DNA of 64,000 nucleotides from Eubacteriales bacterium. Its GTDB lineage: Bacteria > Bacillota > Clostridia > Oscillospirales > CAG-272. Under the pieces are notes generated by a model. It was not told the origin of the DNA. It did no database searches and saw only the letters and a list, made by a program, of their open reading frames with translations. The DNA is taken from the NCBI GenBank assembly GCA_045635225.1, contig JAZRBV010000026.1, positions 71,360 to 135,359 of the forward strand, written 5' to 3'. Below are positions 8,774-60,833 of this stretch, piece by piece. The number at the start of each line of letters is the position of its first letter. The first letter of the stretch is position 1. Both the position numbers and the translations under genes were made by a program.

Positions 8774-9244
8774 TTATTCGTAACGCTTAGTGTACTTTTT
8801 CGGAGCTTCTTCCGTTGAACGGTCATCTGACGTTCTCTTTTCGGCTCGCTTATCCAACGCCTTATCAGTCTTTCGTATGATCTTTTTGGCAAGGAAGGTA
8901 ATTAAAGCGATGACTGTGTAGAGAAAGGCGAAGATGACGATCGCCGCAAAATAAGAACCCTGCGTATCATCGGTTATCCTACCCGAGCCGATGAAGACCG
9001 TACAGAATGCGAGCATAAGCGCGGAAAAATGAACACAGATGCGTAACCACATTGCGATCTTGTCGTACGAGAGCACTAAATTTGCAACTGATATAACGAT
9101 TCCGAAGAGTAGTATGATAGCAAACGAGCCGAGCCCGATGCCGTTATCCTCAATTCCGACGAATGCCCCGAGCAAGTAAACGAGCAGTAGCATAAGTACG
9201 GCGTAGCCGCAGGCTCTCTCAAGGAGCTTTTCAAGTCTTTTCAT
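8774..9244 (-). CDS. Hypothetical multi-pass membrane protein
   Basis: 156 aa with about 4 hydrophobic segments and a basic C-terminal tail. No family recognised. Confidence 0.55.
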   Translation of the reverse strand: MKRLEKLLERACGYAVLMLLLVYLLGAFVGIEDNGIGLGSFAIILLFGIVISVANLVLSYDKIAMWLRICVHFSALMLAFCTVFIGSGRITDDTQGSYFAAIVIFAFLYTVIALITFLAKKIIRKTDKALDKRAEKRTSDDRSTEEAPKKYTKRYE

Positions 9245-9417
9245 ATTTTATCCTGCAATTCGAGTAAATAAATAGGTCGTTAATCGATCCTTTCAAATTA
9301 TTTTACCATATCCCAACGGATTTTGCAAGCACAAAAGAGAAAAAGTAAGAAAAAAGAGTAAAAACAGTTGGCGAATAACAAAAAACAATATCCTTGTAGA
9401 TAAACTTCAAAATCCGG

Positions 9418-9446
9418 TTGACTTTTTTAAAATAGAATAGTATAAT
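9418..9446 (+). promoter_or_regulatory. Sigma-A type promoter upstream of nusB
   Basis: TTGACT, a 17-nt spacer, then TATAAT. Confidence 0.65.
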
Positions 9447-9479
9447 TATAAAGAATAACATTTTTGTGAGGTTTTTCAT

Positions 9480-9884
9480 ATGCAGAGAAAAGCAGCCAGA
9501 GAAAATACTTTCATGCTAATATTCGAGCAGGTCTGCAAAAACGATGAGACCGCTGAGGAAATTTTCGAGAAAGCGACCGCTGTTCGCGGTCTTGAATACG
9601 ATGATTATGTAAAGCGCGTCTTTTTCGGTACCAACGAGAATGCTCAAATCATAGAGGAGACTATTGCAAAGCATAGTGTTGGTTGGAAAAAGGAGAGAAT
9701 ATCCCCCGTATCTATGTCCATACTGCGACTTGCAATATACGAGATGCTCTTTATTGACGATATTCCCGACAGAGTCTCTATCAACGAGGCAGTCGAGCTA
9801 TCGAAGAAGTACGATGACGAGAAGTCCTACGCATTCGTCAACGGCGTTCTCAACGCCGTTCGCGCAGAGCTTGCCGCAAAGTGA
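9480..9884 (+). CDS. nusB: Transcription antitermination factor NusB
   Basis: 134 aa. AREN.F..LF... and ...AINEAVELSKKY...FVNGVL are typical of NusB. Confidence 0.9.
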   Translation: MQRKAARENTFMLIFEQVCKNDETAEEIFEKATAVRGLEYDDYVKRVFFGTNENAQIIEETIAKHSVGWKKERISPVSMSILRLAIYEMLFIDDIPDRVSINEAVELSKKYDDEKSYAFVNGVLNAVRAELAAK

Positions 9885-57594: not shown

Positions 57595-57846
57595 TTGTAC
57601 GTAGTGTCACTTTACGACAAGGCAAAGACTCTGCCTCTGTCGGATATGTACGGCAAGAATCTGACCTTCAAGATCTGCGGCGTTGACGGTTGCGATTGCG
57701 AGGAAACGCTGAAGCTCATTGCCGAGGGCAAGCTCGATACCGAGCCGCTGATCACGCATACCTATCCGCTTGCGAAGATAGACGAGGCATACGAGCTGTT
57801 TGAAAATAAACGCGACGGAGTTATTAAGGTCGCGGTGGAGTGGTAA
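57595..57846 (+). pseudogene. C-terminal remnant of a zinc-dependent (MDR-family) alcohol/polyol dehydrogenase
   Basis: Only about 80 codons. ...GKNLTFKICGVDGCDCEETLKLIAEGKLDTEPLITHTYPLAKIDEAYELFENKRDGVIKVAVEW is the typical extreme C-terminus of roughly 340-aa MDR dehydrogenases. No N-terminal catalytic or NAD-binding part is present, and the fragment starts right after the upstream terminator. Confidence 0.75.
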
Positions 57847-57919
57847 ATATTATAGCGGCACTGTATTTAATGTCCGCTCTTTTTCATTTTATATATCCAA
57901 AACGGATAGTTTTAAGATG

Positions 57920-57948
57920 TTGACAAAGATACCATAATGTGATATAAT
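57920..57948 (+). promoter_or_regulatory. Consensus sigma-A promoter of the islet operon
   Basis: TTGACA (57920-57925), a 17-nt spacer, then TATAAT (57943-57948) with TGa immediately upstream (extended -10). Confidence 0.7.
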
Positions 57949-57954
57949 GAGCAC

Positions 57955-58140
57955 ACAAGAAGGCGGTATGGGTATTTAAACGGTCGGACATAAAACAAGC
58001 GTATTTGACATTGGCTATGCAAGTGGTCTCTGTCAAATGAGAGTGATTTATGTAACGCATTTTAATTACTTGTGCCCGATAGTAGCGCACGGGATACGTG
58101 GGCTTTGTCGGGCTATACTTATACCTTCTTGTAGAAATTA
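57955..58140 (+). promoter_or_regulatory. Long structured 5' leader (or separate small RNA) upstream of the RNase III-like gene
   Basis: Hand pairing of 57955-57975 (ACAAGAAGGCGGTATGGGTAT) with 58115-58132 (ATACTTATACCTTCTTGT) gives 9 bp, a 3-nt bulge, then 9 bp including two G-U pairs. An internal palindrome TTTGACA (58004-58010) / TGTCAAA (58031-58037) is also present. No convincing ORF. Confidence 0.45.
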
Positions 58141-58162
58141 CTATAAGGAGGTTGTTTTTATT

Positions 58163-59215
58163 ATGAACAACGAAACATTGAAATTCATTCAAGGACAAAT
58201 CGGATATGTATTTAGAAATTCGGATTTGTTGCAGCAGGCATTTGTCAGACGTTCTTATTCAAAAGAGAACGGCGGAGAGGACAACGAGGTCTTAGAGTTT
58301 ATAGGTGATAAAGCTCTTGATTTTATTGTTGTCAAGTTACTCGCAGAGAAATACGGATCATATGCAGAGGACTATGATGATTATAATTCACATGAAGATT
58401 GCAACGAATTTGTTTCTGATTTCAGAGAAGGAAAATTGACTGAAATTAAGAAAAAGCTAGTTTGTCGTGAGATGCTATCAAGTCGAATTAGAATGTTTGG
58501 CTTTCAGTATGAATTGATCATGGGAAAAAGTGATATTGATCAGCAAATCTTAGAGCAAGAGTCAGTACAGGAGGATCTTTTTGAAGCGATTATTGGTGCA
58601 GTAGCACTTGATTCAAAATGGGATTTAAATGTTTTAACAAATGTTTTGGACCTAATGTTAGATCCAAATTTTTATTTAGAAAATGGCTTTGATGAGCAAG
58701 TAAATTACGTGGAATTACTCCAACAATGGTATCAAAAAAAGCATCATAATATTCCGGTGTATTGCTATAGGAAAATTGATTTTCCTACTCCCGGTCTTAC
58801 CTATAACGATTTGGGGAAATATAGATGCCAATTAGGTCTATATCCTTTAGAGGGAGGATTTGAAGCTGTAGGTGAAACAAAAAGCAAATCAAGAATGGTT
58901 GTTGCTGAGCAAGCATACCGATACCTTCAAGAAAACGGTTTGTTGGTCACATGGATAGATGAAATAGGTGAACCTAGTATAGAGAGAGCGATAAATCAAT
59001 TACAGGAACTTTACCAAAAAGGTTATATTGGAGAGCCGTGGTACGATTTCACTGAAACATATGATGAGGATGGGAACCCACTTTGGCACTGTGAATGTCA
59101 TGTAGAGGGTAGTGAGATCTATTTTGAGGATGAGTATACATCTAAAAAATATGGCAAGAAAGCAGTAGCGTATGATATGCTTTGTGATATCCTCGGTTGG
59201 GAGGATGAAAAATGA
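58163..59215 (+). CDS. RNase III-domain protein with an insertion in the nuclease domain and two C-terminal dsRBD-like repeats (350 aa)
   Basis: RBS AAGGAGG at 58145-58151. The RNase III signature NEVLEFIGDKAL and the second catalytic block QEDLFEAIIGAVALDS are both intact. First dsRBD-like repeat: NYVELLQQWYQKK...P.Y...AVGETKSKSRMVVAEQAYRYL. Second: INQLQELYQKGYIGEPWY...TSKKYGKKAVAYDML. Confidence 0.8.
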   Translation: MNNETLKFIQGQIGYVFRNSDLLQQAFVRRSYSKENGGEDNEVLEFIGDKALDFIVVKLLAEKYGSYAEDYDDYNSHEDCNEFVSDFREGKLTEIKKKLVCREMLSSRIRMFGFQYELIMGKSDIDQQILEQESVQEDLFEAIIGAVALDSKWDLNVLTNVLDLMLDPNFYLENGFDEQVNYVELLQQWYQKKHHNIPVYCYRKIDFPTPGLTYNDLGKYRCQLGLYPLEGGFEAVGETKSKSRMVVAEQAYRYLQENGLLVTWIDEIGEPSIERAINQLQELYQKGYIGEPWYDFTETYDEDGNPLWHCECHVEGSEIYFEDEYTSKKYGKKAVAYDMLCDILGWEDEK

Positions 59216-59424
59216 AAACAAGGCTAAAAGAATTGCGAGTAGAAAAAGGATATACTCAACAAGAGGTTGCAAATGCAATTATGTGTGCCGTAAGCACATA
59301 TGCTCATTATGAAAAAGACGAACGCTGGATGGACCAAGATACATTAATCAAACTATCAAAGCTTTTCGGTGTTACTACAGACCACATTTTGTATAACGAC
59401 GTAAAAGGAGTGCTAAATGGTTGA
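59212..59424 (+). CDS. XRE-family helix-turn-helix protein (70 aa)
   Basis: LKELRVEKGYTQQEVANAI.....TYAHYEK......D.LIKLSKLFGVTTDHIL is a classic HTH_3 pattern. ATGA start/stop overlap with the upstream gene. Confidence 0.85.
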   Translation: MKTRLKELRVEKGYTQQEVANAIMCAVSTYAHYEKDERWMDQDTLIKLSKLFGVTTDHILYNDVKGVLNG

Positions 59425-60442
59425 TATTAATGATTATAGAGAAGAAAAATCTTGTGCCTATAAGTATGAAGAATATTTGGTTAGAGATAACGGTGCAGTA
59501 TTAAGGAAATCTCGTCCGGATCAAAGGGCACGAAAACTTGATAACGAGTGGACTTTTGGAAAACCTAACATAAAAAACGGTTATCTTGAAATTGCATCAG
59601 TTCGTGTTCATCGTATTGTGGCTTTGGCATTTCACGGAGAACCGCCAACAAAGGAACATATTGTTGATCATATTGATACTAATAGACAAAACAATAGACC
59701 TACCAATTTAAGGTGGGTAACAAGACTTGAAAATGTTGTGCTCAATGAGGTCACTCGAAAGAGAATTGAATATCGAACAGGCGTAAGTATATACGAATTT
59801 TTGGAGAATCCTGCAAATTATAGAGATGCTTTTGAAGATCCGGATTTTAGTTGGATGCGACGTGTTACCGAAGAAGAAGCTAAAGTCTGTTTAGAGAATG
59901 TAAGAAAATGGAGTAAGGATAGAAACGAATCCTCCTCCAATCAAGGCTCTAAATTAGGGGGATGGGTTTATCGACCGCAATACAATGAAAAGAAAAATAT
60001 TGGGAATTCCAACGTATTTATCCAATCACGCCGTTATGCTCTGGAAGAAAAATTAGATGTCATCGATTCCTTGACGACCATGGCAAAGCAAAAGGATTGG
60101 AAAACGCCTACCAAGTTTGTTTGTTGTCCGGAAAAGGTTGATGGCGATCCGATTTTGTGCTATTTGGAAAATGTCCACGAAGATGCAATTTTTACGGAAA
60201 ATCAGTATGGAGAATCCACCATTGTAAAATACGCTTCTGTCGACAACAAAGCAATTGTTATTATCACGGCTATTCCATCATCAATTAAGCCTTTGGCATT
60301 AGTAAAAGTAACATACGAAAATGGATATTACCTACATACGAGTTTAGGTTCATTCTTTACAGATGAAGGGGCGGAAAAGCAATTTACACTTGCACAGGGC
60401 TTGGAGTGGGCTGGCGGAGATAGCATAGATGATTACTGTTAG
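59417..60442 (+). CDS. HNH_3-type (phage homing-endonuclease-like) nuclease domain protein with an unassigned ~200-aa C-terminal region
   Basis: YLVRDNGAVL (NUMOD4-like), then VHRIVALAFHG.....HIVDHIDTNRQNNRPTNLRWVTRLEN (His-Asn-His core). An 8-nt overlap with the XRE gene. No family recognised for the C-terminal half. Confidence 0.75.
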   Translation: MVDINDYREEKSCAYKYEEYLVRDNGAVLRKSRPDQRARKLDNEWTFGKPNIKNGYLEIASVRVHRIVALAFHGEPPTKEHIVDHIDTNRQNNRPTNLRWVTRLENVVLNEVTRKRIEYRTGVSIYEFLENPANYRDAFEDPDFSWMRRVTEEEAKVCLENVRKWSKDRNESSSNQGSKLGGWVYRPQYNEKKNIGNSNVFIQSRRYALEEKLDVIDSLTTMAKQKDWKTPTKFVCCPEKVDGDPILCYLENVHEDAIFTENQYGESTIVKYASVDNKAIVIITAIPSSIKPLALVKVTYENGYYLHTSLGSFFTDEGAEKQFTLAQGLEWAGGDSIDDYC

Positions 60443-60592: not shown

Positions 60593-60621
60593 AAAAGCCT
60601 GCGAAACTTCGCAGGCTTTTT
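60593..60621 (-). terminator. Terminator of the tRNA-Arg/tRNA-His operon (bidirectional hairpin)
   Basis: AGCCTGCGAA/TTCGCAGGCT stem with T-runs on both strands. Confidence 0.8.
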
Positions 60622-60625
60622 AATA

Positions 60626-60703
60626 TGGGGTGAAATATGGGATTCGAACCCACGACCTCCAGGGCCACAACCTGGCGCTCTAACCAACTGAGCTAATTCC
60701 ACC
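60626..60703 (-). tRNA. tRNA-His (GUG)
   Basis: A hand-folded cloverleaf with anticodon loop TTGTGGC, encoded G-1 opposite C73, and encoded CCA. Confidence 0.93.
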
Positions 60704-60708
60704 GTCTA

Positions 60709-60785
60709 TGGCGTGCCTTGAGGGACTCGAACCCCCGACCTACTGCTTAGAAGGCAGTTGCTCTATCCAGCTGAGCTAAAGGCAC
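60709..60785 (-). tRNA. tRNA-Arg (UCU)
   Basis: Acceptor GTGCCTT/AAGGCAC, anticodon loop CTTCTAA, TTCGAGT T-loop, and encoded CCA. Confidence 0.93.
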
Positions 60786-60804: not shown

Positions 60805-60833
60805 ATTATATCAGCATAAATTGAATTTGTCAA
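60805..60833 (-). promoter_or_regulatory. Consensus sigma-A promoter of the tRNA operon
   Basis: On the minus strand: TTGACA, a 17-nt spacer, then TGaTATAAT. Confidence 0.75.

Follow-up and report, generated by a model that had tools for sequence, protein, structure and literature searches.

A conserved structured leader RNA and its predicted two-state switch upstream of an RNase III paralog of gut Clostridia

A 64,000-nucleotide (nt) stretch of DNA from a Eubacteriales bacterium of the CAG-272 lineage (assembly GCA_045635225.1, contig JAZRBV010000026.1, positions 71,360 to 135,359 of the forward strand; hereafter the window) carries a gene of the RNase III family that is preceded by a leader of about 208 nt. 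On the comparative sequence evidence, which supports this well, the leader is an RNA family that is absent from Rfam 15. A regulatory role is strongly supported by the same comparisons. The leader is predicted to be a conserved cis-acting two-state switch of the ON type, in which transcription termination and masking of the Shine-Dalgarno (SD) sequence are set against expression. The downstream gene encodes an RNase III paralog with two domains that bind double-stranded RNA (dsRBDs). The agent that would throw the switch is a matter of weighing several explanations, and the one that we tentatively favour is cleavage of the leader by the encoded enzyme. The elements of the leader and its gene are as follows; lengths are given in base pairs (bp), nt or amino acids (aa).

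57920 to 57948, + strand: sigma-70-type promoter (TTGACA, 17 nt, TGnTATAAT), matching the consensus at 12 of 12 positions
57955 to 58162, + strand: leader RNA of about 208 nt, a sensor domain followed by an expression platform, recognised by fold energy, covariance model and excess of G-U pairs
57955 to 57963, + strand: 5' strand of helix P1, ACAAGAAGG, SD-like, the anti-anti-SD, perfect complement of 58124-58132
57964 to 57975, + strand: segment X, CGGUAUGGGUAU, with two possible partners
57976 to 58065, + strand: P2, a long arm of helices P2a to P2d with many compensatory pairs, capped by GCAA at 58019-58022
58067 to 58073, + strand: segment J, UACUUGU, with which segment X can pair instead, lengthening the base of P2
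58074 to 58113, + strand: P3 hairpin, GCCCGA...UCGGGC with a variable tip; its basal helix is 91% paired and 7 of its 9 pairs are changed on both sides
58114 to 58123, + strand: conserved junction J3/1, UAUACUUAUA, with the family consensus uaUnnUUAUr (conservation profile of 67 leaders)
58123 to 58152, + strand: terminator-like, SD-sequestering hairpin with a 12-bp stem and a 6-nt loop, flagged as terminator-like by a consensus scan
58153 to 58162, + strand: U-tract, UGUUUUUAUU, directly after the SD hairpin and ending at the start codon
58163 to 59215, + strand: the regulated gene, an RNase III paralog of 350 aa (Pfam Ribonuclease_3 and dsrm) with a catalytic domain and two dsRBDs

The leader folds far more stably than its composition predicts. 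The minimum free energy (MFE) of 57955-58165 is -79 kcal/mol, while dinucleotide shuffles give -48.2±4.2 kcal/mol (z=-7.4). A covariance model was built from the leaders of 22 close relatives, and with it the + strand at 57955-58134 obtains 204.7 bits. In 96 of the 98 family loci the model has a single + strand match, immediately 5' of the gene for the RNase III paralog, and it has none elsewhere in the approximately 0.9 Mb searched, which included the rest of the window. One of the two loci without a match is cut by the end of its contig inside the leader (L028). The other (L085) has a divergent leader that still possesses P1-like pairing, an SD hairpin and a U-run. The 200 nt upstream of the gene are visibly kept even between proteins that share 44-50% identity.

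Matches to the minus strand scored at most 39 bits against 205 bits for the + strand, and G-U pairs far outnumber A-C pairs (549 versus 69). The RNA is therefore on the + strand and a minus-strand RNA was rejected. A scan of 57880-58200 against Rfam 15 (cmscan, 4227 families, E<=10) returned no family match and a single chance match to a snoRNA (E=6.3). Full-text literature searches, including papers on the discovery of non-coding RNAs, found no published description of the leader RNA or of the protein family. A search of metagenome contigs with an RNA pattern recovered four true leaders among the 80 matches listed, and each of them has the paralog downstream or lies where the contig end cuts the locus.

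The original prediction held that no credible open reading frame (ORF) lies between the promoter and the ATG, and this is essentially correct. An in-frame ATG at 58037 does run through the leader into the RNase gene and gives a reading of 392 aa. However, homologues start at MNNE and not at the 58037 ATG, and the compensatory changes are of the RNA type, so that a coding leader or a leader peptide was rejected. Two database entries (P0113 and P0118) bear spurious N-terminal extensions of the 58037-ATG kind, which means that gene callers can swallow the leader RNA.

The consensus promoter described in the original prediction is present in full. The -35 box TTGACA (57920-57925) and the -10 box TATAAT (57943-57948) are separated by 17 nt, a TG precedes the -10 box at 57940-57941, and the predicted start is at about 57955, 208 nt 5' of the ATG at 58163. 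Promoters with at least 10 of 12 consensus matches and a 17-nt spacer are found before 46 of the 67 distinct leaders that the structural statistics cover. The commonest distance between the -10 box and the first base of P1 is 6 nt. Given the conserved promoter and this spacing, P1 is predicted to begin at the 5' end of the transcript or within one or two bases of it.

The comparison indicates that the leader folds as a three-way junction of P1, P2 and P3. Standard pairs occupy 89% of the cells in the alignment and 56 of the 65 pairs have changes on both sides. Compensatory cells number 689, against 209±15 in shuffles, and slid controls are approximately 40% paired. Covariation in homologous cassettes, which the original prediction had named as one check, is thus abundant in a leader that nearly all loci retain. 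Because the alignment was fitted to the covariance model, two independent checks carry weight. When RNAalifold was applied to a plain MAFFT alignment, the P2 arm, P3 and the SD hairpin were recovered with many compensatory pairs. Of the 20 column pairs with the highest mutual information, 18 belong to the model or directly adjoin a model pair, and no run of Watson-Crick pairs outside the model, as expected of a pseudoknot or additional tertiary pairing, was seen.

Several loops and junctions contain invariant bases. These are UAAA, caU, AUGcAAGUg, AA, UUU and the J3/1 stretch uaUnnUUAUrCC. The tetraloop that caps P2 is GCAA in 55 leaders, GAAA in nine and GUAA in three of the 67, which is the signature of a GNRA loop. 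P3 is nearly invariant in the window's own clade and there contains three GGG(C/A) blocks, each of which is able to pair with the single GCCCG; alternative conformers of P3 are therefore possible in this clade. In the leaders of the Lachnospiraceae type, P3 is conserved at its base only.

The helix that joins the two ends of the leader was the centre of the original prediction, in which 57955-57975 paired with 58115-58132. The lower half of it is firm. Positions 57955-57963 and 58124-58132 form a perfect 9-nt inverted repeat (P1), and all nine pairs have changes on both sides among the 67 leaders. An alignment-free swap test gave -14.5 kcal/mol for cognate strands and -11.0 kcal/mol for strands taken from other leaders (z=-9.7). 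The full duplex of 21 nt by 18 nt (7 bp, a 3-nt bulge and 11 bp) has an energy of -17.9 kcal/mol. None of 2000 shuffles was as good (z=-4.5), and pairing of this quality is seen in only 0.24% of the 18-nt windows across the 64 kb.

The upper 9 bp of the proposed helix (57967-57975 with 58115-58123) are doubtful in the window's clade, where only 69.6% of the cells are paired and where a competing partner, 58067-58073, covaries more strongly. The alternative helix (57968-57974 with 58067-58073) is about 90% paired and includes four pairs with 5-10 double changes among the 22 clade members. The X-J pairs 16-117, 17-116 and 18-115 rank among the top mutual-information pairs. In swap tests within this clade both partners of segment X are cognate-specific, with z=-8.0 for 58067-58073 versus -3.6 for 58114-58123. 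In leaders of the Lachnospiraceae type only the end-to-end pairing of segment X is specific (z=-3.5), and P1 is a continuous helix of 13 bp (AAAAGGCAUAAUA/UAUUAUGCCUUUU). Segment X may toggle between its two partners. The stacked helices amount to approximately 20-21 bp in both types of leader, as P1, J and P2a (9, 7 and 5 bp) in the window and as P1 and P2a (13 and 7 bp) in the other clade.

The original prediction overlooked the junction domain and a second hairpin that competes with P1. The SD sequence AAGGAGG (58145-58151) lies within the hairpin at 58123-58152. Its 5' half includes 58124-58132, which is at once the 3' strand of P1 and the anti-SD. Because the two helices share this strand they are mutually exclusive. 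The competition accounts for the mixed outcome of thermodynamic folding. The end-to-end helix is missing from the global MFE fold, in which the SD hairpin takes its 3' strand, but it does form once the hairpin has lost its 3' half or that half is kept from pairing. The same behaviour is general in the family. Of 62 leaders, 45 have a paired SD in their MFE fold and 61 form P1 when the SD strand is removed or barred from pairing; the OFF state is favoured by only 4.6±3.2 kcal/mol. On an alignment made blind to structure, the SD hairpin is 91.7% paired and has 42 compensatory cells versus 17.3±3.0 in shuffles. Selection acts on both helices.

The U-tract after the hairpin is also a property of the family. 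A run of at least five U is present in 50 of 62 leaders, compared with 2 of 42 SD-to-start spacers of the other ORFs in the window. The spacers of the leaders have a U fraction of 0.75 versus 0.31 and a length of 9.4 nt versus 7.4 nt. A regulatory leader is what the original prediction got right, since the element is kept with its gene, covaries and pairs a terminator-like SD hairpin against the helix.

In two leaders, L015 (3776-4003) and L017 (681-908), the terminator hairpin and its U-run come first, and another anti-SD/SD hairpin, distinct from the terminator, stands between them and the ATG, as if transcriptional and translational control had split apart. The presence of separate hairpins in these leaders argues that both termination and masking of the ribosome site are used.

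A switch of this design is familiar from riboswitches. ON-type riboswitches, for example the adenine-responsive purine riboswitch, gate an intrinsic terminator through the P1 stem. By this analogy the junction of the leader would be the aptamer of an orphan riboswitch for a small molecule, an ion or a nucleotide signal, and the ligand would lock P1, block the terminator/SD hairpin and turn the operon ON. The resemblance to the adenine type is close: P1 closes a conserved, covarying multi-helix domain, its 3' strand is common to the terminator, the two exclusive states are nearly isoenergetic and the U-run follows directly. The nucleotides of the junction and loops are highly conserved, and the GNRA tetraloop is of the kind that takes part in tertiary docking. 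Riboswitch candidates tied to a single gene family also exist, for example yjdF (PMC4793209).

Other features fit a riboswitch poorly. P1 is long (9-13 bp or more) by comparison with the usual ligand-gated P1 stems and with that of the adenine type, and the hairpin that it opposes also holds the SD. The RNA occurs as one copy per locus, always before the same RNA-binding nuclease, a pattern typical of autoregulation by a protein. No other regulated genes point to a ligand, and no known class in Rfam 15 matches. We consider a riboswitch somewhat unlikely.

The identity of the regulated gene bears directly on the choice of effector. Canonical bacterial RNase III has about 220 aa and one dsRBD (PMC3867540). 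The paralog has 350 aa and two dsRBDs, and its score with the TIGR02191 model (125.2 bits) is below the equivalog cutoff of 166.25, although it shares the acidic signature of canonical Rnc. The catalytic residues E45, D49, D138 and E141 are invariant among 19 diverse homologues. An AlphaFold2 model (pLDDT 90.4) consists of the catalytic domain and two alpha-beta-beta-beta-alpha modules, and the top Foldseek matches are the RNase III of E. coli and of Aquifex. No PADLOC model matches the protein, and tblastn found no canonical rnc gene in the window.

The paralog has more than 2000 relatives in the databases, and the exact protein sequence of the window has no record in the assembly index. Family members occur in at least 333 species-representative genomes, nearly all of them gut or rumen Clostridia, including Oscillospiraceae, Lachnospiraceae and Christensenellaceae, plus Anaeroplasmataceae. 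Ruminococcus sp. JL13D9 (L073) and Pumilibacter intestinalis (L059) are among the carriers.

The NQLQEL helix of the second dsRBD was considered as a reader of the GNRA loop and rejected, as the two do not co-vary. Proteins of the Lachnospiraceae type lack a match to the NQLQEL pattern and their leaders keep the loop, while two loci (L051 and L080) keep the motif and lack the loop.

The explanation that we favour, as plausible and no more than tentatively held, is that the encoded two-dsRBD RNase III cleaves its own leader in a negative feedback. It is drawn by analogy with E. coli, where RNase III controls its own mRNA by cutting a hairpin in the 5' untranslated region (PMC3867540). The strong promoter would start transcription at the first base of P1, and the RNA would fold as the P1/P2/P3 junction. 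In the OFF state the anti-SD strand would leave P1 and pair with the SD. The hairpin and U-run would then terminate transcription just before the ATG and mask the ribosome site in any read-through RNA. In the ON state P1 would hold, no terminator would form and the ribosome site would be free. We infer that the RNase III paralog binds and cuts the coaxial P1/P2 stack of about 20 bp. Such a cut would detach the protective 5' strand, so that the anti-SD could pair with the SD again, and would leave an exposed 5'-monophosphate end. In the window's clade, a helix-turn-helix (HTH) protein acting at a palindrome upstream of the promoter would provide a second, transcriptional loop.

The encoded enzyme is favoured as the effector because the RNA has one copy per locus and accompanies this RNA-binding nuclease exclusively, because the stack of 20-21 bp has the size of an RNase III substrate, and because of the E. 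coli precedent (PMC3867540). The nuclease to which the RNA is exclusively linked is catalytically intact and has two dsRBDs. Substrate of the rncO type, for which about two helical turns of irregular duplex are needed, could be offered by the bulged duplex of 7 and 11 bp or by the stack of about 21 bp formed by P1, J and P2a, with the upper half subject to a competing partner. Like rncO of E. coli, the leader is the structured 5' untranslated region of an RNase III-family gene and contains a helix that may be of about substrate length; feedback through self-cleavage is a plausible outcome. In contrast, no sequence or structural homology with rncO was detected. The leader has a three-way junction, a GNRA-capped arm and a built-in terminator/SD alternative, it serves a two-dsRBD paralog on a mobile cassette, and its cleavage is proposed by analogy.

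A broader parallel is with the structured leaders of genes for RNA-binding proteins, where an exclusive single-copy association is likewise found and substrate mimicry is the expected logic. Binding mostly favours the OFF state in those leaders. Here the folded domain is the ON form, and therefore cleavage or another effector has to be invoked.

This last difference is the first of several points that weigh against self-cleavage. As the folded domain is the ON form, simple binding of double-stranded RNA would raise expression, and negative feedback therefore needs the assumed cleavage. The start site, the termination and any cleavage are all predicted from sequence. The elaborate junction and the GNRA loop exceed the needs of a plain RNase III substrate and look aptamer-like, and no co-variation links that loop to the invariant helix in the second dsRBD. 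A tie to a single gene family is also known from riboswitch candidates, yjdF for example (PMC4793209). When the search was run in reverse, starting from the RNA and looking for the gene beside it, too few true leaders were sampled to judge exclusivity, and the alignment from which pairs were counted was itself fitted to the covariance model.

The order of elements also recalls type III toxin-antitoxin systems, which consist of a promoter, an RNA, a palindromic terminator and an endoribonuclease gene, the antitoxic RNA being made of tandem direct repeats (PMC3401426). In a reading of this kind the terminated RNA of about 200 nt would be an abundant partner that binds the paralog as a decoy or antitoxin, rare read-through would make the enzyme, and without the RNA a nuclease with toxic or defensive action would be set free. 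The gene order is that of ToxIN, CptIN and TenpIN (PMC3401426), and those loci are likewise mobile and sometimes found in defence islands, as this cassette adjoins defence genes in some loci. The near-consensus promoters are conserved and together with the terminator would make the leader abundant. RNase III is also able to bind some RNAs without cutting them (PMC3867540).

However, the leader has no tandem repeats (TRF, score >=30) or direct repeats. The protein has an RNase III fold, is not of the ToxN, CptN or TenpN type and has no PADLOC match. The ribosome site lies within the reach of the terminator, which is in competition with the 5' helix, and the conserved SD sequestration with its competing P1 shows that the RNA has at least a cis role. 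Several cassettes lie amid housekeeping genes. We regard the abundant RNA partner as quite unlikely.

A related and bolder proposal takes up either the riboswitch or the antitoxin reading. The cassette may be a new kind of RNA-gated nuclease module on a mobile element, in which the RNA of about 200 nt is an infection or stress riboswitch, or an antitoxin-like pseudo-substrate, that restrains the two-dsRBD RNase III until it is triggered. We think this unlikely. If true, no earlier toxin or defence system built on RNase III would have had an RNA as its controller.

The simplest alternative assigns no sensing to the leader. It would be a processing or stability element for host factors only (host RNase III, RNase J or Y, or the ribosome), with a helix that protects the 5' end or sets the half-life of the message. 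P1 at the predicted first transcribed base would indeed bury the 5' triphosphate, and a duplex of such length is a generic target of RNase III (PMC3867540). Yet a passive stabiliser has no need of an alternative hairpin that is conserved, covaries and is followed by a U-run, nor of a junction domain of 140 nt with invariant loop and junction bases, and this alternative seems very unlikely to us.

Whichever effector acts, the leader adds a new and well-supported family of structured RNAs that Rfam 15 does not contain, whose switch mechanism can be read from the sequence and which is distributed over at least 333 species-level genomes. It also draws attention to a bacterial RNase III paralog that is uncharacterised, has two dsRBDs and moves from genome to genome in a cassette under tight control. 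Should the enzyme regulate itself through this RNA, the leader would be a ready-made mimic of its natural substrate and a direct route to its specificity. Should the switch respond instead to a small molecule or to a signal of infection, the leader would represent either a new class of riboswitch or a nuclease system gated by RNA.

Transcription of the cassette may be under a control of its own. Three further features of the window are involved.

57894 to 57908, no strand assigned: palindrome TATCCAAAACGGATA (TATCC-AAAAC-GGATA), 11 nt 5' of the -35 box, a candidate operator
59212 to 59424, + strand: XRE-family HTH protein of 70 aa (Pfam HTH_3), whose start overlaps the stop of the RNase gene
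59417 to 60442, + strand: HNH_3 endonuclease-like protein of 341 aa (Pfam HNH_3 and PADLOC homing-endonuclease models), overlapping the end of the HTH gene

Relatives have the motif YCCRAAANGGR 10-11 nt upstream of the -35 box. A gene for an HTH protein of 60-70 aa is present at the same position in 34 of 80 genome loci. The gene and the palindrome are present together in 32 loci and absent together in 42, with four loci discordant. The palindrome is a candidate operator and likely that of the co-transcribed HTH protein, as judged from its position and distribution. The arms of the palindrome differ symmetrically from locus to locus.

Restriction-modification systems contain controller (C) proteins that act at C-boxes, and XRE repressors are similarly paired with operators. 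The 70-aa XRE HTH protein resembles both, as it is co-transcribed with nucleases and comes and goes with a palindrome whose spacing upstream of the -35 box is constant. It also has a weak match to the PADLOC model 'Control_protein'. It differs from the C proteins in that there is no methylase partner and in that it is restricted to the HTH-bearing clade. The loop would concern the promoter and not the RNA, and binding to the palindrome is predicted.

The HNH_3 gene is an accessory that only some cassettes have: it stands at the corresponding place in 6 of the 80 genome loci and is found in L210, L214, L216, L217 and L218 as well. Its HNH_3 domain covers residues 63-107, and the remaining C-terminal 230 aa have no assigned domain. 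The HNH_3 protein may mobilise the cassette. Beyond the HTH and HNH genes, no conserved neighbours were found among the genome loci compared, and the flanks vary between loci. Some cassettes sit amid housekeeping genes, as between ychF and comEC, between GDPD and polA, and between the sigA-trmK-NIF3 cluster (with one unannotated gene between) and dapB. Others sit beside defence genes, namely HipA, AIPR and DrmE, BREX, or an MmeI-like methylase with a recombinase. The picture suggested by these contexts is that of a small, horizontally mobile, tightly controlled nuclease cassette.

A phage origin was rejected, because no close homologue is present in 50,697 phage records; IMG/VR contained eight loci only. 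Insertion linked to tRNA genes was also rejected, since a tRNA gene is nearby in only 6 of 60 loci.

Remnants of genes adjoin some cassettes. In the window, an 83-aa ORF (57595-57846) lies next to the cassette and has a weak Pfam match to a zinc-type alcohol dehydrogenase, limited to the C-terminal end of that enzyme. In L212 and L213 a 61-aa fragment of peptide deformylase is immediately upstream. These remnants suggest insertion or rearrangement.

The locus L220, which lies in a mobile-element context, departs from the usual gene order. The HTH gene after the paralog is replaced by a gene for an RNase_T-like (DEDD) exonuclease (9103-9762; weak Pfam match). A serine recombinase and an MmeI-like methylase are found in the same context, and the leader keeps the P2 arm and SD masking and lacks the U-run.

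Just past the cassette in the window, a second promoter with a 12 of 12 consensus match and a TG (60805-60833) drives two tRNA genes on the minus strand (60629-60785). They score 70.7 and 68.8 bits with Rfam and are followed by a strong terminator-like hairpin (60593-60620).

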